From: Azolla caroliniana
Lineage: Eukaryota; Plantae; Polypodiophyta
Reading direction: 5' to 3'
Assembly: GCA_043228905.1 (NCBI GenBank)
Contig: JBHGNT010000009.1
Location: 11,842,001-11,906,000, forward strand
Length of the DNA stretch: 64,000 bases
Under the pieces are notes generated by a model that was not told the DNA's origin, did not search any database, and saw only the letters and a list, made by a program, of their open reading frames with translations. Below are positions 4,213-57,789 of this stretch, piece by piece (position 1 is the first letter of the stretch; each line of letters starts with the position of its first letter). The position numbers and the translations under genes were made by a program.

Positions 4213-4215
4213 AAA

Positions 4216-4804
4216 CACGTTCGAGTTCACAAGTGGAAGGATCGTGCATAAATGGAAGGATAAGGAAAAACGTTAAAAATCCACTATTTTCGTGATTTAG
4301 AAGTAACTAAAAAAAGAGGAATTTCAAAAAGTTACAGTCTCAATTTATATCACAAACTTTACAACCAATGTTATTTTATAAGAAACGATTTTTTAGAAAT
4401 CATAAGAATTCAAAACACATGCTTTTATATTACTCGATTTGCTACAAGCGGAATGTAGTTACACTTAATAGCCAAAAATACATTCATGATCATTCTTTTA
4501 CGGAGAATCACTACTATAACTAATATACAATGACAATTCCTCCTCCTCATCCTCGAATGTACCAATCAATGCATTATCTTCATCATAAACCAAATGGTTT
4601 GACTCTAGATTATAAGTAGCAGATCTCGTTTGCCTTTTGACTCGAGCCACCTTGTAGACCTGGTAATTTTTCTTTTATTATATCTATTGTTGACTTCCTT
4701 AATCGTCCGACTTTTGTAAGTGTGAAGTCCTATACAATGATATCCACATCAGAGATATCAAGGGTCGAGGTGTTACGAATGTTTCGCTTCCTCTTCCTAC
4801 TTCC
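4216..4804 (-). pseudogene. Probable 3' end (C-terminal coding remnant, 3' UTR and terminus) of the DUF7869-like transposase element, separated from its main body by a Tcn1 insertion
   Basis: Minus strand at ~4800-4620 translates GSRKRKRNIRNTSTLDISDVDIIV*DFTLTKVGRLRKSTIDIIKEKLP. It has the same orientation as the transposase that is cut at 11895 by the other end of the same LTR element. Confidence 0.5.
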
Positions 4805-6570
4805 GCTTCAGGATTACTCCTAAGAACACTATAAAAGAAGGCACTAGGCATTATGTTGAACCAAATTGGCTCAACGCCAGTCTTAAGCCTCTTAGCCATT
4901 TTGTACTTATCCTTCACATAATATATTAGCTGTTATCATCATCTCTCTCTCTCTCTCTCTTCCTCGCTATCTCTCTTCTCTCTTCTCCCTCTCTCAGTCT
5001 CGGGAATCTTACGCAGTCCTGTCCTCTTAGTACTAATAGTACTTCTCTTCTTTAGTACTAATTCCCTCTGTGCTTTAGTACTATTCATGATAGTTTGAAC
5101 CAATTTTTTCCTCTAGCCTACTTGTCGTTCTCCCTCATCCTCCTACCCTTTTCCCTATATTATGGCTACTGTTAGCGCCCAAGAATATCAATTTGTTTTC
5201 TCCGAGCTACAATGCCTAAAAGAAAAATTTGTTGACTTGGAACAAGAAAACCAACGACTGATAGGGGATCTGCAACATAGATGCCCCATCCGGACCGATT
5301 CGTACATGTTTTGCTCCGAGAGTTTTCTTCCTGTGTGGGGTATCAGGGCTTCTCGAACTATCAGTTCCCCACTCCGCAACAATCCGCTTTAAAAATCCAT
5401 TCTCACTTGGGACAAGAGTTCCCTCTTGTTCCTTTCGTGATTTGCCGGCATCGTTAGGAATTGGACGGATTTCCCACCATTTTGGCTCCGAATTCGCGCA
5501 AAAGCCGCACCGCTATCGAGCACCTTCGTCTCCATCCATGATGCCGTGATAAAGGGTTGGCCGAGGATGACGGAATGTGAAACCTCATCTTGCACGAAGA
5601 AATTTTGGTCGATCTCGACATCCCCGATCTTCACCGTCACATCCGGACAAGCCGCAAATAGATCTTCCGTTGCTTTGGTGGCCGCCCGAATCTTCCATCC
5701 ATGGTTGGTGTTAATAGGCCACTTCCCCTTCCGGTAGAACTCCTTGGACATCAAGTTGATCTCCGATCCGTGATCAATCAATGCTAGCACGGGTTCTTTG
5801 ATGTTGCCGATTCGGACCGGAGTCTCCGTAGTCGCGCGTGCCCAATGTGGTCTTGTATAGTGGGAGTTCGGAATTTCGTCCTCCACTTCGGTGTCGTTCA
5901 TTAAAACGGTGTTCGCATTCACCCTTGGAGCATTTTCCTCCGTACTTTGTCTTTTTCGCTTCACGAGATCCACGAGAAGATCGTGGAACTCCTTCTTTGC
6001 TATTTCGAGTAGCTCCCGAAGTGAGAAATCTACCCGGCTATCCAAGATCCTTTCCTCGAACACTCTTTTCAAGTCGGTTTGTTGTTCTATGACCGAGGCG
6101 AGCTTGAATGCCAGAGTTGCCTTTTCTTTTCCCTTACCTCCGGAGTTCCAGCTTTCCGATATCTTCGATGGCCCGCCCGCATCCTCCGTGCGTCGTCGTT
6201 TCTCGTCCACATACACCTTATGCAATTGACATAGGGCGTATACGCTATTCTTGTCGACAGGGCACTCCCATCCCGTAGCTTCCCGGACGCCTTCCGCGGT
6301 GCTTCGGATCTCGTTGGAGTCGGTTTTCTCGGGATTTTCTAGAACTTCCGGCCAAAAAGACGTCTTTGCTCTCGATGACTCCCCGACACATATTCCCGCG
6401 GTTGTCGCATAGTTGCTTCTTGCCGCCAATTCCTCCTCGAGCACCTTCTTCATGCCGCCTTTCCGGAAGTTCGGTCGAAGTGGCTTCCGAGAGTCCATCG
6501 AATGAATCCGGTTTCCCTCGTAGTAGATGAGATCCCGCCGTAGCGCCTCCTTATGCTCGTCGCAATCCCT

Positions 6571-7158
6571 CCGATCGTGTTCGGCGCTATCGCACCATAT
6601 GCACCGTCGGTCCGTATACTTGGAGCTTGTGGGGCGGTCATCCGACTTCTTCAACATCGCGATCTTCAGATTCTCCATCTCCTTCAATAGTTGCTCCACC
6701 GTAGATGCATCAATTGCCTTCTCGGTTGTAGTCTCCCGAGCCCTCGGTTGATGGTCTTCCAATCCGGTTCTCAGTTTCAGAATCGGTTCCGAAACCCTCT
6801 TTTCCTCGTTTGCAAGCCATTGCCCCCTCTTCGTGTATCGCGCGACGATATCCCACACGCTTTCCGATCGTGTTCGGCGCTATCACACCATATGCACCGT
6901 CGGTTCGTATACTTGGAGCTTGTGGGGCGGTCATCTGACTTCTTCACCATCGCGATCTTCAGATTCTCCATCTCCTTCAATAGTTGCTCCACCGTAGATG
7001 CATCAATCCCCTTCTCGGTTGTAGTCTCCCGAGCCCTCGGTTGATGGTCTTCCAATCCGGTTCTCGGTTTCGGAATCGGTTTTGAAACCCTCTTTTCCTC
7101 GTTAGCAAGCCATTGCCCCCTCTTCGTGTATCGCGCGACGATATCCCGCACGCTTTCC
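6571..7158. repeat. 293-bp tandem duplication inside gag (frameshifting)
   Basis: ccgatcgtgttcggcgctatc occurs at 6571 and 6864. The duplicated peptide is visible in ORFs 5389..6858 and 6777..7724. Confidence 0.9.
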
Positions 7159-7741
7159 CATGTTTCGGTGAGGCCACTCTCCGTGGTCGTGTCCTCCAAG
7201 AGCACTCCGAGATCTTTCCGGTCCCGGATGTCCACGGCTCGCAAGAACATGATCACCTTGTCCGGTACGAGGATAGCTTGATCTCTCGCGGACAACCTCC
7301 CGAACCGGCTTTCAAATGCCGAAAACACATCAACGACCTTCAATCCCTTGTCCGACATCTCCAACCAATCTTCGAATCCCCTTCGCGTCGCCTTGGAGGA
7401 ATCCTCGATGGCGAACGTCCTCTTTAGCTCTTCTTCAAACGCCTCCCATGTCGGATTTTTTTGTCGTAGCCCATGGATGCTTGCTTGAAGCCCGTCGGTC
7501 GCCACCCGGTTGAAGGACGTCAATTGCAGTCCTTCCGATATTCCGCACCGTAGCATCTCCGCCTTGTAGTCCCGAAGATACCGCGACACGTCTTTCCCGT
7601 TGAATTGCCCGTTTCGTTGCACGAGCCGCTCCACTGATGCCGCTATCTCCGACATCGCGCGTTGTTCTTGTAGCATGCGCTCGAACATCATCATCATGTT
7701 GCTAGCCTCCGGTTGATTTTCCATCTCCTTGCCACCCGGTT

Positions 7742-7759
7742 TTCACGTCGGGCTCACTA
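7742..7759 (-). promoter_or_regulatory. Primer-binding site complementary to tRNA-Trp
   Basis: Minus strand TAGTGAGCCCGACGTGAA lies 4 nt after the LTR. The complement of the plant tRNA-Trp 3' end, as recalled, is TGGTGAACCCGACGTGAA (2 differences). Confidence 0.75.
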
Positions 7760-10700
7760 ACTGTGTCGTGCCTTTCGGCTCTGGATCGTTGCGTGAGTCG
7801 GGTGGGAAGCGCCGAGGTTTTGGACTAGGAGGAAGAAAAATACAAATAAGACTAGTAAAGAATAGGTATAAAGAGTTATAAGATAAGAATCTTGTGAATC
7901 CCACGAGTTTAGTATATTTAGTCAATATTTAGGTAGTAAGAGAGAATTATTTTAGCAAATTCATGAATCCCACGAATATTTTAGATTGATTGATCATTAT
8001 AGAAAAAAAATCAACAAAAACTACAATGTGCTCCCCATCCTTATATAGTGATGGGAGAAACTAAGCATAGCTACATGCTTTTTTCTAATATGTTCATGCA
8101 CACTAAATGTGCATGTGATGCTTTTCTAATCCTTGCTTTTATTTGCTAAATATAGTGCTCATGCACACTAGATGTGCATGAGTCACTTTTTAGTTGATTG
8201 CGTTTTTCTATAAAATATTCACGCACTCTAAAAATGCATGATTTACCTTTTAATAAAGGTAGGCGCAAATAAAGGACTTATAATTATTAAATCTATTTGT
8301 AGAACACTAAAGATAAGGTAGCATAACGGTAAAGTTGAGGTTTGGTTACGTGGAGGTATAAGGTTTGAATCTTGCCTTATGCACGTGATAAATATTTTGA
8401 TATATTATTTATTTATTTATATGTATCTAAAATCGGATATATTATTTTATGGTTTTCTCGTAGTGTGTGGAATACACTACGACAACGTATTTGACAAGGT
8501 AAAAGCCGGTACTCTTCCTCATCATCGTCCCTACAATTGTCCCATCGATTTACAACCAGGAGAAGAGCCACCATGGGGACCAATCTACAACTTGTCACCC
8601 ACCGAGTTAGAAGTCCTTCGAGCCTACATAGAGGAGAACTTGGCAAGCGGGTTTATTCGTCATTCGAAATCTTTAGCCGGAGCACCCATCTTCTTTGTCA
8701 AGGAGAAAGATGGCTCACTTCGTCTTGTTGTTGATTACCGTGGCTTAAATAAGGTCACCATCCGGAATAGGTATGCACTTCCTCTTATATCAAGTCTTTT
8801 AGAGCGAGTTAATGGTGCCAAGTTTTTTACAATAATCGATCTACGAGGAGCGTATAACCTCATGGGGATCCGACCGGGAGATGAATGGAAGACTGCCTTT
8901 TGCATGCGGTATGGGCATTTCGAATATACTGTTATGCCGTTCGGTCTAACCAATGCACCTGCAGTCTTCCAACACATGGCAAATGATATATTTAGAGACC
9001 TCTTGGATATCTGTTTGATCATCTATCTGGATGATCTATTTATTTATTTGAAGACCCAGGAAGAGCACGATCCTCATGTACTATTAGTACTAAACCGACT
9101 CCATGAGAATGGTCTTTATGCCAAGCTAGAAAAATGTAGCTTTGACTGCAAGCAAGTGGAATTTCTAGGCTATATTATCTCCTCAAAGGGCACCTCCATG
9201 GATCCAGCTAAGGTCCAAACTGTGCTAGAGTGGCAAATTCCACGGTCAGTACGAGATGTACAATCTTTTCTAGGTTTCGCTAACTTCTACCACAAGTTTA
9301 TATAGGATTACTCGAAGATTATTTACCTCTCACACAACTTACGAAGAGTGGACAAGCATTTCTTTGGTCCAATGAAGCGGACATGGCTTTTCGGCATCTT
9401 AAGAAAGCCTTTACATCAGCACCTATTCTAACCCATGTCGATACAAGCAAACCATTCATCATGGAGGCCGATGCATCAGATTTCGCCCTCGGTAGCATCC
9501 TTTCTCAACAAGGAGATAAAGAAGAGTTACATCCTGTGGCTTTCCATTCGCGCAAATTCGATGTTGCGGAAATCAACTACGAAATATATGACAAGGAGTT
9601 ATTAGCCATCGTGGATTCATTTGTGCAATGGCGGCATTTTTTGGAGGGCTCTCCACGTCAGGTCATCGTCTTCAGTGATCACAAGAATCTTTCTTATTTC
9701 TAGAATGCTCGTGTGCTAAATCGACAGCAAGCTAGGTGGGCTCAATTCCTCACACGTTTTGATTTCAAAATTGCATATCGACCGAGGAAGCAGCAAGGAA
9801 AGGCAGATGCACTATCACGGCGTTCATATCTTGCACCTCGTCCTAGTGATCCCGCATTCGATAATTAAAAGCAAGTAATCTTGGGACCAACACGATTGCA
9901 CACAACGCGGATTTTTCACACCCCAAAGGATTCCCAGATTATCGACACCATACGTGCGAATTTGAAGACGGACAATTTTGCTCAAGACATTCTGGCACAC
10001 ATTGATACCTCTCAGGCATCCTGTTCCCAGTCTCAGCAACCAAGTATGGACTACAGACAATTCGAATATCATGATGGTTTGTTATTCTCTAAAAAGCTTG
10101 TATATGTCCCCGATTGCTCCTGTCGCCTTCAAATCGTCCAAAGTTGTCACGACACCCATATGGCAGGACATTTTGGTAGCACTAAGACAATAGATCTAGT
10201 TCAACGATCCTTTTGGTAGCCCTATATGCGACGTTTTGTCGACGACTACGTTCAGACCTATGATGCTTGCTGCTGAGCAAAGATGCCACGACACCATCCA
10301 TATGGCTTGTTGGAACACTTACCGATTCCAAGTAAGCCGTGGTAGTCTATTTGTCTTTATTTTATCACAGATCTACCGGTCTTGAAGGGGTTCGATGCTA
10401 TCTTAACCGTCGTCGATCGATATACAAAGATGGCACATTTTGTGCCATGTACTAAGGCCATCACTAGCGAGGAAACCGCCACCCTTGTCATGCGTGAGGT
10501 ATTTTGGCATCATGGCATCCCAAACAGTATCATCAGTGACCGAGGACCGCAATTTTTCTCCAAATTTTGGCAGCATCTCTTCAAGATGCTCAAGGTCTCT
10601 TGCAACCTCTCCTTCGGCTACCATCCTCAGACCGATGGGTAGGCGGAACGAACAAACCAAACGCTGGAGCAATATCTCCGGTGTTTCCTGGGTTATCAAC

Positions 10701-11224
10701 AGGACGATTGGGCCGAGATTCTCCACTTTGCGGAGTTTGTGTATAATAATGTTGTTCACTCCTCGACTCGAGTCTCCCCATTCTACGCTTATACCGGTTC
10801 TCATCCTCGCTGGTCGGTGATCGACACCCGGGAGCTACCTACCAATCCTCGTGCTGGGGATCATTTGGAGAGACTACGCAAGATCCAAATGGATCTCTCT
10901 ACTCATCTTCGTCATGCTCAACAGACACAGAAAACTTACACGGATCGTCATCGGCTTCCCTCCTCTTTTGCCATCGGAGATCGAGTATGGCTTTTATGTC
11001 GTCACATCAAGACTACTCGACCGTGCGACAAGTTGGATTATCGCCGACTCGGTCCTTTCCGTATTACCGGCAAGGTTAATGATGTCACGTTCCGCCTTGA
11101 TCTTCCTCCGCATCTTCGGATACATCCGGTCTTCCATAGTTCTCTTCTTGAACCTTATAAAGCAAACACTCTTGCCGATCGTGTTACTCCACTGCCACCC
11201 CCGCTTGAGTTAGACACCGGCTCG

Positions 11225-11385
11225 GAGTATGAAGTTGCTGCCATCCTCGACTCCAAATTTTTTCGCAACAAACTTTATTATTTGGTCGATTGGCTTGGCT
11301 ATAGGCCGAGTGAATGTACTTGGGAACCCGTCGAGTATGTCGCCAATGCTCAGGATCTTCTTGCTGAGTTCCATCGAAAGTATCC
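11225..11385 (+). other. Integrase C-terminal chromodomain (group I type)
   Basis: EYEVAAILDSK..LYYLVDWLGY..SECTWEP..V.NAQDLLAEFH, with the aromatic cage Y/W/Y present. Confidence 0.9.
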
Positions 11386-11447
11386 GAACAAACCCGGTCC
11401 GCAATCAACGCTGACTCGTTCCACTCGTCGCCTTAAGGGGGAGATAG

Positions 11448-11894
11448 TGTCATGATATGGCAAGACTCAAACCCATGACATTATGTTATATGGGTCGAGC
11501 TCTTGACCAATATAGCATCTATTGTAATACGTAGGATATTATTTTCATTTAAGTTTTATTATAGGAAATTAATGTATATTCTAGATTTCTCTGGAACATT
11601 CTAGAAGCTTCAGGATTACTCCTGAGAACACTATAAAAGAAGGCACTAGGCATTATGTTGAACCAAATTGGCTCAACGCCAGTCTTAAGCCTCTTAGCCA
11701 TTTTGTACTTATCCTTCACATAATATATTAGCTGTTATCATCATCTCTCTCTCTCTCTCTCTTCCTCGCTATCTCTCTTCTCTCTTCTCCCTCTCTCACT
11801 CTCGGGAATCTTACGCAGTCCCATCCTCTTAGTAGTAATAGTACTTCTCTTCTTTAGTACTAATTCCCTCTCTACTTTAGTACTATTCATGACA
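11448..11894 (+). repeat. Tcn1-like 3' LTR (complete, 447 bp)
   Basis: 8-bp terminal inverted repeat TGTCATGA/TCATGACA after the PPT. The 3' portion is near-identical to 4805-5092. Confidence 0.92.
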
Positions 11895-13934
11895 CTTGAT
11901 CGTGTTTTCTATTTCATGCATTAGCAGTTCTAGAATTTTACCAACCCAAAATTGGTGGCCATGTGAGTTCTCATCAGCCGGCGTTGCAATCAACATCCCT
12001 GCCGTGAGCTCTTGCAAATTGCCTTGCCATCTAGCTTCGGCTGCTTTGGTCATCCTTGGTCCCACATAAATGTCTCTTTGTTGTGGATGGACCAAACTGT
12101 CATTAATCGCATTTGTTGGTTGCTCCGGAGTTCTATTTACACAATCATGTTGCAGCGACCATGTGAATGGCGTTTCCAAATTCCAATTATCACCAAATAT
12201 ACAATTGTCTATAATTCCTTTCTGATCACTATAAAATACATCCCACCATGATGTTTCTTGTTGTTCGGCATATTTCTTGGCGGCCTCAATATGCTTTCTT
12301 TTTTCTTCTAAGGCTTGGAGCCATAACCGTTTTTGTTCCAATACCAAGTCACTCTGCAACTGTCCTTTCTTCTCAATTGGCATTTGCTTAGCTCCATGGA
12401 CAATTGTACTCGGCATACAAAGTAATAACTAGCAACCACCTTCAAGTTCCCATGCTGTAGAAGATGAATATTGTTTAGCATACAAAAGCGTAGAACCACT
12501 TATTTCATTTTTCTTTATCATAAAAATGTGATTGAAGCTTATATTGTTTAACTAGGTGAGCACTTTAACATTCCCAACACCCCCATATGATATATATCTC
12601 TTAAAGTCATATACCTCCTTCAAGTGTAACACTTTTCGGCGTGGTGTATATGCATCACAAATGACATCAAATAGTTTACGTAATGTGAAAGCATCATGCC
12701 GAGACAACTGTCTAGAGAATGTGCTAAACATTTGATCTATATGATCATGTGTGTGGCCAACCAAAAGAAAATTGACTTTCACTTTTCTAAACAATCCTTG
12801 GTTGACCAACATACTTAGATAGCCAAACACAGTTGAATTTTTGTTCTCTCTAGTAGTATTGTCCAATTGAATGTATAGAACAGGGGGGAAAGGTTGGCCC
12901 CAAGACATCAAAACTCGGTGAATCATTGTAACTGTAGAAATGATAACATTTACGTGGAATGATAACATTTGAAAACCAAGCTCTCCATAATCTTGTGAAT
13001 TGGTTATATGTGACAAACTTATTACGTGAGCCCACCATATCAGATCGATAGACATCATAAACTTCCCGATGTGTGTAATTATCAGAGAGGTGCATCCTAC
13101 CTGTAGTGGGCATTACTTCACAATTTAATTGAAAGTAACTTTTCATCCAACCAATAGCATGTTTTCCAATTGCACCTTTCATACTTAGAACCTCTTTACG
13201 ATTAAGCATCGGATCCCCGCTAAGTAGACGTTGTTGTACTCTATGTAGCCGCATGTTACTGACACATAACACAATTTTGCATGCAACTCTACATATCTGT
13301 TGCGCATGGAAGATATAATACTCGAATGATACTTTGATCCCCGTACATTTGTCAAACACTAGTTGCATATGTGACCCGAGGTAAGTGTCTTGCCCATCAC
13401 CAGTCATCGAAAAATAGTATCGCCTTAATTCTCGCAACTTTGATTTTCCAATCATAGACATACAACCACGGGCACAACATATTTTTTTGACATCAAATCC
13501 AATCTGTTTATCTGATGTCACCAAGTTAAATCTAGCCAAATGAATTCTTTGTGGGATTCTTCTAATATGCATAGGGCTTCCAGATTTCTCTTCCTACATA
13601 GAAGTTGGTGTAACCTTGTTACTATCCAATTCTTTGTTGTGACCATCGCCCATGATATTCCATGTTTCATTGGCACTACCTTCATTCTCCGTATCTTTAT
13701 TAATATCGTATTCTTCAATAGAGAACTCTTCACATGTGTCATTATTCACATTCGTTGTAGAGGTGAAGATGAGCTCAGACAATACTCTTCGATAGAATAT
13801 GGTGAGTATGTCCACAGAAAATATTCTTCAATAGAAAATGGTGAGTCTGTCGACAAACAATACTCTTCAGTAGAAAACGAAGAGTCTGATGACAAACAAT
13901 ATTCTTCAATCGAGAACGGTGAATCTTCACTCAT
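11895..13934 (-). pseudogene. DUF7869-type (Sola-like) DNA transposase, frameshifted and partly deleted
   Basis: Core motifs are LYIQLDNTTRENKN...FLLVGHTHDHIDQMFS. The upstream region reads CC..GC, QICRVAC, W...YF..NCEVMP and FTRLWRAWFSNVIIPRK; the downstream region reads FWVGKIL. It is split over ORFs 12850..13572, 12552..13058 and 11883..12416. Confidence 0.75.
13781..13934 (-). repeat. 39-bp in-frame tandem repeat (DSPFSIEEYCLS-like, 4 copies) at the transposase N-terminus
   Basis: aatactcttc/aatattcttc recurs every 39 bp; see ORF 13746..13934. Confidence 0.8.
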
Positions 13935-14592
13935 GGCTTAAGGTCTACACAGAGCTCTTTAAGTTATGTGCTTAGGCTAAGGCAAAAAACTAATAAGCTC
14001 CTCTCTAAACATAAACTCCTCTCTAAACAGAAGCTCCCTGAATATAATGTCTATATTATTTAATATTATCTTAATACAATACATAAAAAATATTATTTTT
14101 AATATAATAATTGTATTCAACATATTAATAATTACTTAAACTAGTTTGTATGAAGTTAAATCAAGTATAATATAATTACAATCATTACTAAGCCATATAT
14201 ATGTTGGATTAAAGTTAAAATCATTGGTTAATTAATGGCACCCATATTTAATATAGAACTTCTCAATCATTGGTTCATTCATGCCCACCATTTTAAATAT
14301 AAGACTTTTCAATCATTAGTTCATTCATGCCCACATCTCTAATACAAAGCAATTAAGAGTCATAAAAATGTTGCTTTCAGTAATCAATCATTGGTTCATT
14401 CATGACCTTCAAAGTCATTGTAAGTTATTTTGACTATAAAATATTCATCAATATGTTAGTTTGACTTTGTAATCATTGATCCAATCATAAGCAACTCTGG
14501 TTAAAGTGACTGTGGCTACTAACTAACTAACCTCAAGCTTGCCAACCCTGGTTAAAGTGATTGTGGTTACTTTAACCACTGTGGTCGATCCC

Positions 14593-14600
14593 TATAAATA
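14593..14600 (+). promoter_or_regulatory. TATA box of the divergent plus-strand gene
   Basis: CCTATAAATA lies ~100 nt upstream of accATG (14700) and the splice donor CAG|GTAAG (14734/14735). Confidence 0.6.
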
Positions 14601-14780
14601 GGAAGACCTCGTCATATTTCAGTCACACGAAACACAAGAGCACACAGAGCATGAAGCACGAAAGCGAGATCTCCGCCTAAAACTTGACAAATATCAACCA
14701 TGTCTTCAAAGAAAATCGAGCGTCAGGACTCCAGGTAAGCCTCTAACATTGTGGACATTTTTGTAAATATGTTTTAGCAT

Positions 14781-15470
14781 CAGGAACTCGATACGGCGTA
14801 TCGAGTTCTTGTGTAAAACACAAACTTTATACAGGAACTCGATACGACGTATCGAGTTCTTGTGTGAAATTTAGGTTTTATATAGGAACTTGATACGACG
14901 TATCGAGGTCTTGTTTAAAGTTTTTGTTTTAAAGAGGAACTCGACACCCCGTATCGAGTTCCTATATTATGTTTGCGTTTTAAATAGGAACTCGATACGC
15001 CGTATCGAGTTGTTGTATTATGTTTGCGTTTTAAACAGGAACTCAATATGCTGTATCGAGTTGTTGTATTTTGTTTGCGTTTTAAACAGGAACTCGATAC
15101 GCCGTATCGAGTTCCTGTATTTTGTTTGCGTTTTAAACATGAACTCGATACACTGTATTTTCCTGTATATAGTGTGTGTTTTAAACAGGAACTCGATACG
15201 CCGTATCGAGTTCTTGTGTTATGTAACTCTTTTACAAAGGAACTCGATACAGTGTATCGAGCTCCTGTATTAGGTTTGTGTATTATAGATGGACTCGATA
15301 TGGCGTAACGAGTCCCTGTATAAAGTTCCTATTTTATACAGGAACTCGATACGGTGTATCAAGTTCCTGTGTAAAGTATGTGTTTGATACACGAACTCAA
15401 TACCCTGCATCGATTTCATGTATAGACACGAACTATATACAAGAACACGATATGGTGTATCGAGTTCATG
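14781..15470. repeat. Array of 14 x 31-bp palindromes (CAGGAACTCGATAC-nnn-GTATCGAGTTCCTG) with ~20-bp AT-rich spacers, ~51-bp period
   Basis: Units start at 14781, 14832, 14883, 14934, 14985, 15036, 15087, 15138, 15186, 15237, 15288, 15339, 15390 and 15440. Confidence 0.95.
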
Positions 15471-16340
15471 TATAAAACAAGAACTTTAAAGAGGAATATT
15501 GTGTCTTTCGGGCAACAATTTAGTATTGTGTGAAAAGATATCAAACTTTTTGTCAAAATCATTCTTTTTTTAGGGTGATTTGCCTTATTTTGTAACAAAT
15601 AGGGGCCTTAATTATAGAGGTTTTATGACCTAGTATAGCTTAAAATAGTAGAAAATAACCCACAAATTACCTTTACGATACCAAATTCAAGTCTATCATA
15701 TGCAAATTCTCTAGAATCAATATAAGCCATACCTATCCTTCAAGACAATATATATCCTTGTATAGTTATTAAGATATATATTTTCTAATTTGAATAGCCC
15801 TTACTAGAATGGATTTCTGAATAAAGGACTACCGTGTTCACACAATGCATGATTGATATTTATAGTTTACCACAAATCGCATGCTAGTTTATGTCTTCAT
15901 CTAATTATTTGTATTTTAATATACAAATTTAATCTACGTGACTACCTAACTTATGTTTTCACATGTCCTTTCTTAAATAGGTCGTTTGAGAACTTGTCTG
16001 ACCGACCTGTGAAGAAGATAAAGCTCTGCATACAAGGTTCTCCAATTGAAACACAGACCCTAATAGCTCCCGAGAACATGAAGAGAGGAAAAAAGCTTCT
16101 CTTCAACGAGGAGACAAAATCTCAACCACATTGAAGTTAGCCAAAAGAAACTATTAGTAGGTACTGGTAGTGAAGACCTTCCTGACCGTGATCTAACAGA
16201 CAAGGAATGATGTATGCAATACGTCGACTCCAAGAAAAAAGTCGTATTGTATACAACAAAGAAGAAGGGCGAGGGGCAGCTTGAAAATGAAACCCCATTT
16301 ATGTATGGCCGTAATCTATGATTTGACTACGAAGATGCAG

Positions 16341-19300
16341 TATTAGAGATCTAGGTACTAAAGTAAGCTTAAGATAAGGATAAAGTATTGATAGATAGAA
16401 AGGAGAAAGAGAAAGAGGAGTGTTGATCCACCCGACCACCCTCGAGCGAAGGGATCGAGACGGACTCGAGCCTCGATCGACGTCCCATACCACCGCCGTG
16501 GCGTCGAGTCGTACCTGGTGTTGGCGTGCTCGCTACAAGAGTTGACCCACCACAAGAGCAGAGTCTCGATGTAGTCAAAAGATGATCAAATGAGGGTAGC
16601 TAGGCCTCTTATTTATAGCGATACCCAAGGCCCCCAGGCAAGTTCACACTTGACCTAATGGGTAGTCTCAATCCCGAGGATTAAAAGTAATCCTCCGCTT
16701 CTTTACACTCTCGTTTAACCCTCACACTTATCCACATGTATCGAATACTACGATAAATTCTCACCACGGGATATTAAATGGTCATGCCCGTAACATACTC
16801 CCCCCTCTTTAAAACATTGCAGTCTTGCAATGGAAAGTTAGGGAAATTAGTTCTGAGAGTATTTTCGCGTTCCCATGTGGCATCTTTTATTGATTTATCC
16901 ATCCATTTTATTTTAAATTCTCGGATTTCTTTAGTACGTAATTTTTTTGTTTTAACATCGAGAATTCTTTTTGGTACATGTGGTTTAGAAGATAATTCTT
17001 CAGAAGTAACCAGAGTTTCAGTTGTAACTGTATTGTCGCCAGAACCTAGAAGCTCTTTTAGACGACTTACATGAAAGACTGGATGAATTCCAACACCATC
17101 GGGAAGAGCGAGACGATAGGTTGATGACCCAATGCGTTTGAGGACTGTAAAAGGTCCACAAAACCGTGGGGCTAACTTAGCGCACTTACCCGTAGACAAT
17201 GTCTTAGAATTGTGAGGTACACATAAAAATACCTTCTGTCCAGGGTTGAATACACGAGGTTGCCTATGATGGTCGGCATAAAAACGCGCTCTATCTTGAG
17301 CTGTTTTTATATTATCTCGTGCAATATGCAACATATCTTGCATATCTCGAAGAAAGTTTTGCGTACTTTGCAACTCATCATGATGTATATTAACATCAAT
17401 CGGGGCTCGTGGTTGAAAACCATACATCAACATAAAAGGACTATATCCTGTCGACATATGCTTGAAGTTGATATAAGCAAACTCCAAATTTGGGAGATAA
17501 CGTTCCCATTTTGTTGGTTTTGCGAAGAACTATTTCAACGGCCTCTTCGAAGGATTTTGGATCCTTATTGTGCACTATCCAGTGATAGTCCGAATTGGGG
17601 ATGCCATTGACAAAACAAGCTATCAACCAATTGTCCCCTTCTAGACCCAATTTTTGGATTTGGGTTCTAGCATGGTGACCACAATCTTCTAGCGAGGAAA
17701 ATTTCCTGCTAGAGAGGTTCATTAAAGCTTGTGCTGCCTCGGTTCGAGAGGGAGGTTGCAGAAATTGGCCCTTAAAAACCGTGACAAAATCTGTCCAGGT
17801 ATCGGGCAATTTCCCCGTTGTACGGTGCCCACGCCACAAGGCGGCAGCCTTACCCCCGAGTTCTCGGCTGACATATGCAATCTTCGTACTATCTGGCGTG
17901 GGATAGAGCTCAAAATGAGACTCCCATCGGCCTAGCCACGTGTAGATTGCTTCTTCGGTTCTTTCCTTTTTGTCTCCCGTAAATGGCTTAACAACAAACG
18001 ATGGTTCACCCTGTCACTCATCAGGTCTATTAGTCTCACGTTGTAGACTAATGACACGTGCCTCGAGAGCACTTTGAGATTGCCGAAGTTCGGTCATCTA
18101 TTGAGCGGTGAAACTAAGGTATTGGGTTATTTGTGCCAAATACATCTCAGTGGACATTTGTCCAGGAGGATTCCCTTGAGTTCCTTCCGCTTGAGCGGAT
18201 GACATCGGGTCGTTAATTTGAGCCATTAAAGATTATTTTTGGAAAAGAAATAGGATAAGGTCAGAGAGATAGTCATAACATCATGTCGTGATGTAAACAT
18301 ATCATGGGCAAACATTAATCGATATCATGATCTCACGTCAATACCCCTCTAGACGTATGAGATGAGGTTCAAGATCAAGTTACTATGGTAACACAAAGGT
18401 GTTTTAAAAACCATGGGGGTGACAAAGAAATATCTTTCCCTAATCTCTATATCGATTTTTTCATGGTGGCTCCGCGAGGCTCAACCATGTATGTTCACAT
18501 CATGAATAGTTTATACACGAAAAAAATGTTAACATAAACTATGTTTCGGTGCCCACATATGTGGTTTCGGCTCTTTAAGTCCTATTACGAGGACCCCGAG
18601 CTACACTTGGACCTTAAGTCTGAACATGTGTTATAGTCATATGTATCAAGGATGTTGTATGGTCTTGGTCATATTTGAACTCGAAACCTCGAGAACAAAT
18701 ACATTAAACACTTGAGCCAACCAAGTAAGTTGCGCTTCTCAAATGCTTAATGTTTGATGCGTATAGGAGATATGCGAGGCATTTGATCATATATGTTTTT
18801 TTTAAAAGAACATATATGTCAAGGGTCCATATTTCGCCCTCATTTACCAAAACTATGTTGGTACGTTACCTAACCTCAAGTCTCGTAATTACGATGGCAT
18901 ACGCCAAAGTGCAACCTAATGGTCAAGCCAAATGAGCCCTCGTTTCGTAGTAGGCTCACGTGGCCCATCACATGGTCACGTCATTACGAATGCCTCTCGT
19001 ATGAACGAGCTCATGGTGGCATCGTATCCATGTAACGAGGGAGGGATGTTGGATACGTGTGTCATTGGAGCGACCTCACTTGAAGTGGGTCAAGCCCTAC
19101 GTACTCAACATCATTATGGCTATAGGCGTTTCTTTACGTAACGAAATCGAGGTCATCAACGGGGTTGTCAACAATAAAAAATTGTTGAAAAAGGGATGGT
19201 GACAACGCCATTCTCACAAAAATGTGAGGACGGCCACCAACATCCTTTTCCTGACAAGGACAACTTTCGATATAATCACGTAATAACGAATATACACATA

Positions 19301-20370
19301 TGTTTACTTATCACATATATACGATCAAATACGCATATACGTGACCACATATGCCTATATTAAACATATCGTTATATTAAATAGCCACAAATGGCGTGAT
19401 CGAGATACATAATCGAGGTATATACCTCTACGCACACGAAACATCCACAAATAAGAGATCATCGTAATACGCAATTGAGGTATTGACCTCTTACGCATAC
19501 GAGACCAAACGCATATCCTTTACAATAAATCAAGGTATTAAACTCATACGCAAACGTAACATATGTTCGTGAACGTAATACGTAGTTGAGGTATTAACCT
19601 CGTACGCATACGACACTCATCACATATTATTTATATGTCAAACAAGGTATTGACCTCGTGCACATATGTAAACGCTTTAGATAATCAATTAAAGACCACT
19701 ACAACATCATTGACTTAATGAAAAAAATGACATATAAACTAAACACATGATTAGATGGGAGAAGAGAGAATAGAGAAAAAAAAATACGGAAAGAGTTACC
19801 GAAGTTCTTTGTTGATCATTGTCTGGATCAAGGCCGACTGCATGTCGATCGATCACCATCAATCAAAAGACAAAAGACAAACAAAGAAACATTAGTACAT
19901 AGCTCTGAAACCAATTATTATAGATCTAGGTACTAAAGTAAGCTTAAGATAAGGATAAAGTATTGATAGATAGAAAGGAGAAAGAGAAAGAAGGGTGCCG
20001 ATCCACCCGACCACCCTCGAGCGAAGGGATCGAGACGGACTCGAGCCTCGATCGACGTCCCATACCACCGCCGTGGTGTCAAGTCGTACCTGGTGCTGGT
20101 GCGCTCGCTACAAGAGTTGACCCACCACAAGAGCAGAGTCTTGATGTAGTCAAAAGATGATCAAATGAGGGTAGCTAGGCCTCTTATTTATAGCGATACC
20201 CAAGGCCCCCAGGCAAGTTCACACTTGACCTAATGGGTTGTCTCAATCCCGAGTATTAAAAGTAATCCTCCCCTTCTTTACACTCTCGTTTAATCCTCAC
20301 ACTTATCCACATGTATAGAATACTACGATAAATTCTCACCACGGGATATTAAATGGTCATGCCCGTAACA
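16341..20370 (-). mobile_element. Non-autonomous chromovirus (LTR, long leader, partial gag, integrase tail/chromodomain, LTR) with intact ends
   Basis: 455-bp LTRs at 16341-16795 and 19916-20370, TSD TGCAG on both sides, PBS TGGTTTCAGAGC (iMet-like) at 19902-19913 and PPT at ~16798-16812. Gag remnant ~17480-18225. ORF 16774..17487 has GPF, HPVFHVS and the chromodomain IKW...DATWE. Confidence 0.93.
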
Positions 20371-21399
20371 TGCAGATTCGGCCAACGTACTAGTAACGAT
20401 AGAGTGCTCTAAGGGGGTACGTAAAGTGTTCCTTTCTGAAGCTCTTCTAGTAAAGGAATCTTGTGGGCCAGAAGCTTTCAAAAAAGATCTAGAAAACTCA
20501 CAAAACCTTATTGTTACCTTGAGACCTTATATACAAGGCCATGTAACTCTAAGGGATCCATTACCCTCCCCAGTGAAGGCCACAAAAAAGGGCATCTAAA
20601 GTACAATCAAGACCACCAAAAAAGAAGACCGCCAAAATGTCAGACTCCAACTCATCAAGTGAAAACGAAGATGAGGAGACTAAGGGGACACCAGGAGCTA
20701 AGCTGGCATCGGGTGTGTTGTCATCCGAGTAGAATAAGATACGGAGAGAGTTAATGCAGCGTAAACTGGTCAGGAAAGGGCAAGTGTTTAATTTGCCTAT
20801 AACACACATCCATCGGCCCCCTATTGATGAAAAAAATAGGACGAAGACCACTTGAGATTAGAGAGCCACACCGAATGCATGTTCAAAATCTCAAGAAAAA
20901 AATGAAAATTAATCCTCATGCTACCGTTGTGCCTTTTATTGTTATGGTGGATCCTGAAGAATGTGAAACCATTGAAGATTTTGATATAAGAAAGCATGAT
21001 CAATATAATTACTTTGTCATTGGTGGATCGCATTCAACGAAGGCACGTCGGCAACTTGTCAGAGAACATCCAACGACTTTCTTCTTCAAGTATGCCGAGT
21101 GCAAAGTTTACGTGGGTCTTACAATTGAAGAGGCAAAGTTGTTGGCATGGGACCACAATAACGATAATGACTATAGGCAGAAAATGTCATCGATTGAACG
21201 TATAAGGTTCTTCTACCACGAGTATTTGGACGTCAAACAAAAGTTTTGTGTGAAGCTACATCTAGGGCTACGACGTCAATGCTTGCATGAAGTCGGCATT
21301 GTGGTAGATGATAATGTTAAGTCCGATGGTCTTCGAAAATATGATTCTTGGTTTCAACTGGCCTTTAGAGATGGAGAAGTATGGGACCTACAGGATAAG

Positions 21400-23110
21400 T
21401 GATCGGATGGAAAGCGGCCGGCTCCTCACAGAAGGCGAAGGAGCAGCCTAGTCGGAAGTGTACGGCAAAGAAGGAGACACTGGTGGAAACACCGGTGAGA
21501 CCCTTAAAAATTAATCTGCGCTGGCCCGAACAGCCATCGGAACAACAACAGGAGCAAGAACCCTTGGCGGCGTTAATCAATAGCGGAACCCTAGCAGAGG
21601 AGCAGGAAGAAGAACCTGTCGAGCCCCTATTACGTCGCAAACAGACACGCGACGAGGGCCACAAAGGGGAGGAATCAAGTCCGGTAAGGGACAGTATCCC
21701 AAAGCCCCGCCCCGAGGAGCCGTAGCCCAAGAAGGAGTCAGAACCGGTTCAACTAGCTCTGGTCTTAGAAGCACCTGTGCGGCAAGAAATAGTGGAACCG
21801 GATATTCAAAAACCGGTGATTGAATTGTCGGTGTCGTCGATGCAGCAGCAACAACAAGAATAGGAACTACCACTAACCACCCATAATATGTTCCCGGCGA
21901 GTGATGAGGCCACACCACGACCAGAACCGGCATGACAACATAGCACTGGCAGCCAATGGCTACGGTGGATAGGAGAACAAGTGGCCAGGGTGGTGTGCCA
22001 CATCGAAGCAGAAGAAAGAGCACACGTGGACTAGTTGGTCGCCACAACTGAAGAACTAGAGAAGGTCCAGTCGAGAATCCGGAGCATGGAACAAGAAATG
22101 GAAAAGACCAGAGAAGAGGTGGTTAAGCTGGTCATCGAAGGACCAAAACAATTAGAACCGATGGCACCGGTGAGTGTTCAGAATACTAAGACCCCGGTGA
22201 CTGAAACAATCCCGAATAGGAATAAGGCACAGGACCAAGAACTCGCCACGCTGAAAGAAGAATTGGAAGCCCAAGAGGCCTTAAGGGAGGAAGGAGGCGG
22301 CGAAGGAAGAACAAAAGAAATTAGCCGAAAGCCTCCAGCGAGCCGAAGAAAGCCTGCGAAAAGGTCATCCAACTAAAGGAAGAAAAAGAAAAACTCCTGC
22401 AGGAAAAGGACAAACTCCGGCTCTCGACAGACGTAGAGATCGAGCGATTCAAGGAAGAGCTCCAACAACAAAAGGACCTGGAAGACCATGCTTGCCGTCT
22501 AATCAATCAAAGGCTGAAACAAAAAATGGACGACTTTGATCGGCTGCACTGGGATCACAAACACTTGGATGCGGAACACAAGAAATTGATCACGGAAAGT
22601 GATCGGTAGTAGGAGAAGTTATGGGAACTTTGGGATGCGGTTAACTGGACAGCGGCGACCCTTGCGGAGGAAAAATCGAAGGGGGCTGAAGTAGCGAAAA
22701 TATTGGCGAAAGAACGGATGGAGCTAACCTGGCAGCACTCTGAGGCAACGGAACAAAGTTCAGACTACCTATCAGACATAGCTCATCCACTGCAGAAGCC
22801 AGGAAGCAACAACGACAAGCCTTATCAAACAATTGAAAAACGAAAAACAAGCCGTAGAGAATAAGTCGAAGATGGGGTTGGGGCGAATCCGTGATTTGGT
22901 GCTGACATTGCGAGACCGGACAAAGAGACTGGTGGAAGAAATTTGGGTTCAATGGTGGTCTAAATGGGCTAAGCAGGCGGCGGAGTTACAATTGCTGAGA
23001 GCAGATGTGGAGAACCGGAGGAAGGACGACGACGATTTCTATAAACTGGACGAGGAGAACATTGTAGCCATAAGGGAGGAATTGTCAGACGACTTCCTAT
23101 CGTTAGCCGG
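21400..23110 (+). pseudogene. Degenerate charged/coiled-coil ORF of probable retroelement origin
   Basis: E/K/Q-rich fragments in ORFs 21399..21725, 22035..22376 and 22833..; there is an abrupt compositional change at 21400. Confidence 0.4.
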
Positions 23111-35449: not shown

Positions 35450-36516
35450 ACGTAAGCCTACGAGGGACGATCTCCTTATCGGAGCCTTCGAATCATGTTT
35501 ATCGCTGTCCTAGTGTTGTCGGTGTCTCCGAAACTAGCTTGAAACTCTTTAACAAATGCGTCAAAATCCTCTAGCAATGGTGATTTCTTCTCGAGAAGTG
35601 GTGCGAAGTTCCCACTAATCCCACACGAGCAACGTCAGTTGGATACCGATTGGGATGTAGCTAAATAACAAGACGAACTTGATTCAAAAAGCCTCGAAAT
35701 AAAGACCTCATACAATCCAACTTGGCGGGGAGGCTGATCTTTGGCTCTCTAGGGGAGTTTTGAGCCCCCGACACTTATTCTCATAATGAAAATATAATCG
35801 CCTTGAGTTGATGAACCCGTTGTGATAACTCTTCATACTATTGAGCTTTTTCAGTGATCACTTGTTGTAGGTCTCCAAGTAGCCTTTGATTCTCATGCTC
35901 TAATGCCACAAATTTATTCGTGAGCATGTCGAGCTCAAAAAGAACACGCATGTATTCTTGTTTGCTCGAGGCGAGGGGAGAGGAGAAGGAAGAAGAGAAC
36001 TTGTTAGGGTTTGTCGAAGACGAAGAAATGAAAGAAAATTTGGTTCAAACTGTCGAGAGAGAGAGAGAAAGAAGATAGAGAGATAATTGAAAAGGAATTA
36101 TTATATTGAAGAGTAAATGGATTACAAAGAGTAGGCAACAGAGTACTACAAAATGGCATTGAACCAATTTAGGTTTGGGATGAGTGGTAGATCCCAATTT
36201 ATAAGTAATAGAGAACACTATAGAATATTCTAGGTTATCCTAGAATGTAGAGTAATCTAGAATATCTCTAGAGTATTCTAGAAGGTTCTAGTGTATAGAA
36301 TACTCTAGAATATTCTAGGTCATTCTAGAATATAGAGTAATATAGAATATCCCTATGATATTAGATTTCATATTCTAAAGACTATACATGCAAGAATATT
36401 AATACAATGGCTAAGGATTTGACATGTATACAACAAGGTCGTGGGTTCAAATCCTTTTGAGGCATAATGTGAGTGTCATGATGCTTTCAATGCATGATGT
36501 GAGTGTTATCATGACA
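35450..36516 (-). mobile_element. Tcn1-like chromovirus 5' fragment (LTR and gag start)
   Basis: LTR 36051-36516 is highly similar to the reverse complement of 57283-57794. The gag remnant matches 57880-58430. Confidence 0.88.
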
Positions 36517-49524: not shown

Positions 49525-50154
49525 ATGGCTTCCTCTGAGAGCGATTACTCTCAGTACTCAGACGACGACTCTGTATCTTCTTACTCGGAAGGAGAAGAGG
49601 GAGGAGGTGAAGGATTTTCTGATTCAGAGTACGGCGGTAATGGAGATGAAGAAGCCTCAGACTCAGACTCAGACTCAGATTCGGACTCAGATTCAGACTC
49701 AGAAGAATATGAAGAAGAAGACGGAGACTATGAAGATCAGTATGACGAAGAAGAAGACGATGATGATGATGAAGATGACGACATCGAGAATGAGTATGAT
49801 GATCTACAAGAAGATGAAGAAGCTGAAGACTTATATCAAGAAGTTAGAGACGAAAGAGAGCCGATTATTAGCAATCAAGCGGACGGATTACCTCTACTAG
49901 AGAGCAACAACGGGAGGACTGATCAGAAAGCCGAAGCAGATGAGATCTCTGATCTAACAGATGGACCTTTCTCTGCGGAATCCATAAACTCAGACATAGA
50001 TCCGTCCACGTCGGTGGAAGAGAACAAGAAAACCTTATCTCAGCAGGAGACTCCTCCAGAGAGTGATAGTGGGAATAACACGGCTTTGTCTCCTGCTCCT
50101 GCCACCATAATTTTGCCTTTGGAAGGGAAAATGGAGAACATGAGGATCGAATAA
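49525..50154 (+). CDS. Hypothetical 209-aa highly acidic, low-complexity protein
   Basis: Uninterrupted ORF MASSESDYSQYSDDD...MENMRIE. The ATG lies 2 nt after a polypyrimidine/CAG splice acceptor (49522); a UTR-like SSR-rich region follows. Confidence 0.55.
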   Translation: MASSESDYSQYSDDDSVSSYSEGEEGGGEGFSDSEYGGNGDEEASDSDSDSDSDSDSDSEEYEEEDGDYEDQYDEEEDDDDDEDDDIENEYDDLQEDEEAEDLYQEVRDEREPIISNQADGLPLLESNNGRTDQKAEADEISDLTDGPFSAESINSDIDPSTSVEENKKTLSQQETPPESDSGNNTALSPAPATIILPLEGKMENMRIE

Positions 50155-57282: not shown

Positions 57283-57742
57283 TGTCATGATAACACTCAT
57301 CATACATCATGAGATGATAATGATGTATCGAAAGGATCATGACACTCACATTATGCCTTGAAAGGATTTGAACCCACAACCTTGTTGTACACATGTCAAA
57401 TCCTTAGCCATTGTATTAATATTCTTGTATGTATAGTCTTTAGAATATGAAATCTAATATCATAGGAATATTCTATATTACTCTACATTCTAGAATGACT
57501 TAGGATATTCAAGAGTGTTCTATACACTAGAACCTTGTAGAATACTCTAGAGATCTTCTAGATATCTACATTCTAGGATAACCTAGAATATTCTAAAGTG
57601 TTCTCTATTACTTATAAATTGGGATCTACCACTCATTCCAAACCTAAATTGGTTCAACGCCATTTTGTAGTACTCTCTTGCCTACTCTTTGTAATCCATT
57701 TACTCTTCAATATAATAATTCATTTCAATTATCTCTCTATCT

Positions 57743-57789
<47 letters not shown>

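Follow-up and report, generated by a model that had tools for sequence, protein, structure and literature searches.

A land-plant transposon family that pairs a DUF7869 transposase with a ParB-like methyltransferase gene and an intronic palindrome array

A transposase-like gene, a ParB-like gene and a regular array of palindromes that lie side by side raise the question of whether they form one mobile element with its own cis-acting sites or are chance neighbours. We address this question in a stretch of 64,000 nucleotides from the fern Azolla caroliniana (GenBank assembly GCA_043228905.1, contig JBHGNT010000009.1, positions 11,842,001 to 11,906,000 of the forward strand), referred to below as the window. 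Comparison with relatives indicates that the window holds the left ~6.1 kb of a terminal inverted repeat (TIR) DNA transposon (4214-21396 minus two insertions of long terminal repeat (LTR) elements), which measures 7.6-8.6 kb in full-length relatives and belongs to a real, high-copy element family. On balance we favour the view, drawn from sequences and predicted structures, that the protein of its second gene would dock on the array in its own intron and likely write N6-methyladenine (6mA) on the element to keep it active.

A profile built from 23 relatives of the second gene was searched against metagenome contigs, and the best 80 of 161 confirmed contigs, grouped at 90% nucleotide identity, give 41 families. 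Wherever a contig extends at least 3.3 kb upstream of the ParB exon (12 of 12 contigs, 10 families), the transposase gene lies head-to-head with the ParB-like gene. The window's TIR occurs at both ends of the nearly complete contig L007 (~8.6 kb). Contigs with both ends measure 7594, 7724 and 7805 bp, apart from an internally deleted one of 6044 bp, and the TIRs enclose the transposase, the ParB-like gene and the array in L007, L022, L025 and L037, as expected from the preliminary description of the window, which had proposed one mobile element with all three. At 33 ends in 28 loci the terminus is AACAC or AACAT, and the close-matching TIR core is ~33-37 bp long. Since the sequence just outside AACAC varies among the other copies, we place the terminus of the window copy at 4214, where its left TIR begins (4214-4250, plus strand, 5'-AACACG..., 37 bp, 92% to the right TIR of L007 and L003); the terminus CACGTTCG proposed at 4216 thus fell two bases too far in. 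A 4-bp target-site duplication (TSD) was seen in one of the four both-ended contigs compared: L025 has TGTT at either end and L024 shows a related empty site, while L022, L037 and L059 gave no match. Short-read contigs of repeats may, however, join the flanks of different copies. Moreover, the trees of the transposase and the ParB gene (13 loci) contain the same three clades, the ParB tree being weakly resolved, and in the liverwort Riccia the two genes bear the consecutive locus tags R1sor_010795 (DUF7869) and R1sor_010796 (ParB-like with PF01555); no such neighbouring pair was seen in those other named hosts that allowed the comparison. Taken together, the TIRs, the head-to-head genes, the shared family tree and a conserved palindrome core indicate that the element carries both genes and the array as a unit.

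The transposase gene of the window copy (11895-13934, minus strand) is a pseudogene of a DUF7869 (Sola1-like) DDD transposase, as recognised by Pfam PF25273 (E 1.9e-41) and by comparison with intact relatives; this bears out the transposase-like gene proposed there. We take DUF7869 to be equivalent to Sola1. In the transposases of intact relatives, which match DUF7869, the motifs DGMDQ, QLDNT and GHTHDHIDQ are conserved. The C-terminal tail, which had been placed near 4620-4800, is somewhat longer (4501-4804, minus strand, with a frameshift near 4635) according to tblastn with intact transposases (87-89% for P0185/P0187). The transposase N-terminus consists of a 39-bp (13-residue) acidic repeat, FSIEEY-like (13776-13926 in the window), which is also found in relatives. 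Two fragments in the Riccia DUF7869 cluster, P0278 and P0280, are named BAH domain-containing, so that the C-terminus of the transposase may include a domain that reads chromatin.

Named relatives come from ferns, Riccia, Ginkgo and Chara, whereas no angiosperm name occurs among the 30 relative proteins looked up. All of these named hosts have flagellated sperm. P0040 (Ginkgo Gb_37443) is a gymnosperm protein with both a ParB-like and a methyltransferase half (DIPHGY). A search of viral contigs for relatives gave 13 pattern matches, none of which was confirmed. L032, L035 and L011, considered as other gene layouts, were rejected, as each is one element inserted into another. In these 3 of the 80 contigs (L011:3280, L032:4040, L035:3960) a family member lies inside a gene of another member, which either a preference for its own kind or query selection may explain. 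In L015 the element is flanked by a ~300-bp periodic repeat with the look of a PPR gene (7500-8800).

The ParB-fold and methyltransferase halves of the second gene

The preliminary description of a spliced plus-strand gene with palindromes in its first intron agrees with the intact relatives. In the window, exon 1 (14700-14734, plus strand, 35 nt) equals exon 1 of L007 in length and phase, and the intron 1 acceptor at 15980 also agrees with L007. Exon 2 is split by an LTR insertion. Its 5' part (15981-16340, plus strand), located by tblastn with P0002, encodes the N-terminal region and the start of a weakly PH-like beta domain (Z 4.7), and its 3' part (20371-21396, plus strand, 89% to P0002) encodes a ParB-fold domain (~20778-21184), assigned from the fold of relatives, and the start of a helical region, with frameshifts near 20588 and 20830. 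The beta domain ahead of ParB is confidently predicted (P0003 residues 118-227; window 16133-16340 and 20371-20590), with weak PH-fold matches (Z <=4.7). Between the two genes lies a divergent intergenic region (13935-14699) with 46-bp repeats (14219-14334) and a TATA box (14593-14599), which would serve as their promoter. As to expression, two contigs from a sequencing run presumed to be RNA partly match the methyltransferase region, without a splice joint, and a second run gave nothing.

The ParB-like domain that had been read from the downstream exon is predicted from the model of a close relative. The P0003 model (mean pLDDT 58) gave 12 Foldseek matches with E <=0.001, and the 11 of these that are listed are all ParB or Noc; it aligns with Caulobacter ParB (7bm8) at Z 9.7 and a root-mean-square deviation (rmsd) of 2.4 Å over 97 residues, and the P0057 model matches PadC at Z 9.3. 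At the sequence level, the Pfam scan gave no ParB match for the window protein, a search of the ParB half against the Protein Data Bank returned chance gp41 matches only (E 0.02), and a wider profile search found methyltransferases and no ParB.

Of the 37 relative contigs that extend at least 1.7 kb downstream, 36 show the gene running on into a beta-class N6-adenine/N4-cytosine DNA methyltransferase with motifs IV and I. Spliced models were built for the 27 contigs that held all anchor motifs, and 26 of them (22 distinct proteins) are intact. All 26 share the positions of four GT-AG introns downstream of the ParB exon, five introns in all with intron 1, and all contain ADIPYGF, NPYQKPQ and DLFSGTGTT. 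ADIPYGF (motif IV) precedes DLFSGTGTT (motif I), as in the permuted beta-class PF01555, and Ile replaces the first Pro. Synonymous divergence (dS) was measurable in 7 of 11 pairs and saturated in the other 4; in these 7, the ratio of nonsynonymous to synonymous substitution rates (dN/dS) for the predicted methyltransferase domain lies between 0.016 and 0.075, which shows purifying selection on this domain. The L007 protein matches PF01555 with E 1.3e-10. Furthermore, the P0057 model (mean pLDDT 74) aligns best with CcrM (Z 21.0, rmsd 3.4, 225 residues aligned), followed by M.BceJIV, MboIIA, M1.HpyAVI and RsrI, all of them beta-class N6-adenine enzymes, while N4-cytosine enzymes rank lower (PvuII, Z 16.5; rotifer N4CMT, Z 16.8). 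Because the gene continues into an amino-methyltransferase in relatives, DNA modification, which the preliminary description had listed as one option, gains support. Among 10 motifs in 15 coding sequences compared with codon shuffles, no target motif was clearly depleted, the largest drop being that of GAATTC (3 vs 9.3 expected from the shuffles). P0159 (the amoebozoan Clastostelium), P0157 (the sea anemone Exaiptasia) and P0264 (the hemichordate Saccoglossus) have kept the ParB and helical regions with decayed methyltransferase motifs.

The palindrome array and its possible roles

Intron 1 of the window copy contains 14 palindromes of the form AACTCGATACG-N-CGTATCGAGTT with a 51-bp period (array 14781-15470, palindromes 14785-15466), as initially described. 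One of these units is degenerate; 13 pass a 2-mismatch filter, against a single match in the rest of the 64 kb. The core is conserved across families as TCGATRC-N3-GYATCGA, a two-fold symmetric 17-bp site, whose arms are 59-95% alike between families, compared with 32-62% for the linkers. In 13 transposase-bearing loci, 88 of the 90 motif matches lie between the two genes, and the count per locus ranges from 0 (the deleted L059) and 1 (L022, L023) up to 15. The 128 spacings taken from 23 representatives cluster at 30-34, 39-43, 49-56, 63 and 71-73 bp, equal to 3-7 helical turns, and are phased at a period of 10.2-10.4 bp (R 0.74, phase near zero). Among 1560 pairs, G-T mismatches (44) hardly outnumber A-C mismatches (39), so that no RNA-pairing bias is seen. 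The lack of a G-U bias together with the helical phasing makes a site in double-stranded DNA, bound by a dimeric protein, more likely than an RNA structure; hence, judged by their sequence, the palindromes look like DNA binding sites.

We propose the following course of events. The divergent promoter would express both genes, and a dimer of the second protein would bind the two-fold symmetric 17-bp site via its ParB-plus-helical half. The phasing would let adjacent dimers occupy one helix face, and the tethered methyltransferase would mark nearby element DNA, probably at adenine, since motif IV begins with Asp. The mark may then counter host silencing by 5-methylcytosine (5mC), or license the promoter or the ends, in the manner of the transposon protein VANC by another route.

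Several observations weigh against this proposal. Box II of the ParB-like domain reads GGSHS and has no GxxR arginine (in the window and the 6 rows shown, the register being set by eye; GGSH in 26 of 26 models), and just one of 18 full-length rows, that of the amoebozoan P0159, has retained this arginine. According to the available text of PMC12704722, the GxxR arginine is required for nucleotide binding in ParB-fold proteins, and its loss abolishes binding. A canonical cytidine triphosphate (CTP) clamp is therefore doubtful, and within the proposed scheme the modelled ParB domain would likely serve for docking or dimerisation instead. The analogy to ParB CTPases loading at parS sites, which the preliminary description had drawn, consequently holds for the fold and is weakened for the nucleotide switch. 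The helical region after the ParB fold aligns to ParB at an rmsd near 10 Å, and a helix-turn-helix is not demonstrated. The catalytic motif is DIPY in place of the canonical DPPY, and the methyltransferase motifs are decayed in the animal and amoebozoan relatives. A long array is not required, as L022 and L023 have one palindrome and L037 has two between the genes. Finally, the p-value for phasing (0.016 on distinct values) is to be taken as indicative, because the families are related and the motif filter was fixed once the data had been seen.

That beta-class N4-cytosine enzymes also match the P0057 model counts likewise against 6mA and leads to a variant of the proposal, in which the binding is the same and N4-methylcytosine (4mC) is written, likely at the CG-rich palindromes or nearby CGs, where it would block or mask host C5 methylation. 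The array indeed has a CpG observed/expected ratio of 1.82, with up to four CGs per window palindrome, and 4mC exists in a land plant (bioRxiv 10.1101/2021.02.12.428880). However, motif IV begins with Asp in 26 of 26 models, unlike the TSPPY of MpDN4MT1 from Marchantia, and the five best structural matches as well as the best sequence matches are N6-adenine enzymes, so we consider 4mC unlikely.

We give a similarly low probability to a regulatory role, in which array binding would be KorB-like control of the divergent promoter or a scaffold for transposition, with methylation as local autoregulation and not anti-silencing. The array sits within ~0.1-0.8 kb of the shared promoter region, KorB occurs among the structural matches, and a nested, transposase-less left end in L011 retains an array. 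Nevertheless, purifying selection on the catalytic domain is as strong as on the ParB domain, which exceeds the need of a pure binder.

Subterminal and internal repeats are often transposase sites. The palindromes might accordingly be bound by the transposase or a host factor, with the methyltransferase finding its target via its own recognition domain, and the undemonstrated helix-turn-helix of the ParB protein fits this idea. Yet the motif is absent from the termini, only 2 of the 90 matches lie outside the intergenic and intron stretch, and inverted-repeat arrays also occur beside the ParB genes of Plavaka elements, whose transposase is unrelated, according to the available text of bioRxiv 10.1101/2025.02.11.637652; we regard this explanation as improbable. 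A structured intronic RNA, another option of the preliminary description, is disfavoured further: the array is part of a transcribed intron, and every unit is able to fold back on a 3-nt loop, as hairpins serving as a small-RNA source or as the substrate of an RNA methyltransferase would need, but the near-equal G-U and A-C mismatches and the helically phased spacings make this very improbable. That the three parts are chance neighbours, as the window alone without a right TIR might suggest, is refuted by the TIR-bounded relatives, the pairing in 12 of 12 contigs and the matching clades of the two gene trees.

The question at stake is whether transposons write their own DNA mark. We would go further only tentatively, to a picture we consider possible rather than probable: non-flowering land plants may host a large radiation of self-addressed epigenetic transposons, in which a ParB module without the CTP switch polymerises on phased palindromes and directs a bacterial-type methyltransferase to the element, and 6mA (or 4mC) overrides 5mC silencing. 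If true, land plants would possess in these elements a defined, high-copy source of DNA methylation other than 5mC, and the elements could yield a portable, site-tethered methylation tool.

The window copy and its surroundings

The copy in the window is dead, in agreement with its initial description as a pseudogene: both genes contain stops and frameshifts, the transposase has a deletion and has lost codons at the 4805 junction, and the copy is truncated at 21396. The deletion, internal to the transposase at ~12940, spans ~122 codons and deprives it of the CxxC/H motif as well as its first catalytic Asp (DGMDQ). The ~6 kb unit reconstructed in the preliminary description contains all the parts named, although it is the left part of an element and not a whole one: homology to relatives ends at 21396, where a Gypsy internal fragment cuts in. 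Neither the methyltransferase exons nor the right TIR were found within the 64-kb window, and the rest of the flanking LTR, sought as a possible right boundary, was not found. The window copy thus lacks the methyltransferase half, the most interesting part of the element. Two sequencing runs contain the window's family, and their contigs span the methyltransferase exons and the right TIR of L003 in 30 of 30 bins. This indicates that organisms with this family also carry 3' halves, though no single contig joins them to the window copy. The CpG/CHG values, compared because weaker depletion might be a mark of silencing evasion, average 0.80/0.86 in intact genes and are 0.59-0.71/0.58-0.59 in the window copy and 0.51-1.03/0.28-0.72 in the neighbouring retroelements, the hosts being different.

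Two nested LTR elements lie outside the transposon proper. The first (4805-11894, plus strand) is a chromodomain Gypsy element with the Pfam domains RVT_1, Chromo and Asp_protease, an LTR pair (4805-5090 and 11607-11892) of 97.6% identity and a second retroelement fragment within it. It is present as described, but not as a clean insertion: its 5' LTR is truncated, and ~155 bp of this LTR and ~30 transposase codons are gone at the 4805 junction. The second (16341-20370, minus strand, LTRs 96.5%) is flanked by TGCAG on both sides, and the empty-site join 16334/20370 was found in contigs from 3 of 4 public runs, in line with the insertion and duplication proposed for it.

The surroundings are plant DNA dense with nested retroelements. 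The segments 35452-36498 and 57320-58434 form a 1.1-kb inverted pair, 87% alike, which by their look are opposite LTRs of the family of the 4805-11894 element. An acidic open reading frame at 49526-50154, located after an AG acceptor and without a Pfam match, is possibly a host exon.

Relation to known systems

The impression in the preliminary description that this combination had not been described has to be given up, since the design is already in print for Sola1-1_Ec32 of the brown alga Ectocarpus (PMC12477816) and, as to the arrays, for Plavaka PAG3 (bioRxiv 10.1101/2025.02.11.637652). As described in the available text, Sola1-1_Ec32 has a Sola1 transposase and, on the other strand, a gene for a ParB-like and N4C/N6A methyltransferase protein (1104 aa, compared with ~976 aa in the plant relatives); its termini AACCG...CGGTT resemble the AACAC...GTGTT of the plant element, and its 4-bp TSD has one counterpart among the plant contigs. 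On the other hand, it is a single brown-algal family of 21.5 kb with 282-bp TIRs, whereas the plant elements, compared by description and not by sequence, measure 7.6-8.6 kb, have a TIR core of ~33-37 bp and form at least 41 families in land-plant DNA; the available description mentions no palindrome array. The same source cites Iyer et al. (2011) for green-algal relatives. Plavaka (EnSpm) PAG2/PAG3 of the red alga Bostrychia share a ParB-like protein whose best match, 7BNR, also ranks first for the P0003 model, a PF01555 methylase and tandem inverted-repeat arrays beside the ParB gene (bioRxiv 10.1101/2025.02.11.637652). They differ in the transposase superfamily and, as far as that text describes them, in carrying two separate fusion genes, one joining ParB to a 2-oxoglutarate (2OG) oxygenase and the other joining the methylase to SET. 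Self-binding and self-modification were proposed by the authors of both reports, in which the available passages treat the design in one paragraph, without a test.

Phage ParB_N and N6_N4_Mtase fusions of ParB-terminase loci (Javan93, Javan69) are described with the same domain order as the plant protein (PMC4738411, PMC12704722). The methyltransferase halves of the phage and plant proteins align (profile match E 1.7e-10), and 301 phage records match that of P0057, whereas phage ParB_N and the plant ParB half gave no profile alignment (probability 0.75%); the plant protein also has extra N-terminal and helical regions and introns. A phage origin of the plant protein is plausible.

In plasmid SopB/sopC, as in the plant element, palindromic sites stand in tandem. 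The plant element differs from bacterial ParB/parS and from SopB/sopC in that it has no ParA partner (none lies between the L007 TIRs, which hold the two genes only) and no Box II GxxR arginine, and an enzyme is fused at the C-terminus. Bacterial ParB shares with the plant protein a ParB fold followed by a helical region (PMC12704722).

Another parallel is VANC, of the anti-silencing system of the Arabidopsis VANDAL elements. It too is a transposon accessory protein acting on tandem-repeated motifs in its own element (PMC5735166). VANDAL elements are Mutator-type, and VANC causes 5mC loss, while the plant-element protein is a predicted writer of another mark. MpDN4MT1 of Marchantia is likewise a prokaryote-type amino-methyltransferase in a eukaryote; it is a host gene with TSPPY, and the available text mentions no ParB (bioRxiv 10.1101/2021.02.12.428880). 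DAM-carrying elements also bring such an enzyme but are retrotransposons, with neither ParB nor Sola mentioned in the text available (bioRxiv 10.64898/2026.05.21.726589). Mobile-looking ParB-HTH Dam genes of Volvox are described with no transposase nearby (Iyer et al., 2016), and land plants are described with few N6-adenine DNA methyltransferases (PMC4738411).

No land-plant report of this element type was found in the PubMed Central library; subscription papers, Repbase entries and bioRxiv supplements, which may list land-plant relatives, were outside its reach. While the general design is known from algae, what is new here are the compact land-plant elements, an array inside the enzyme gene's own intron and its helical phase. 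For land plants the design is now specified by an enzyme with invariant catalytic motifs, a candidate 17-bp site and a phasing rule.

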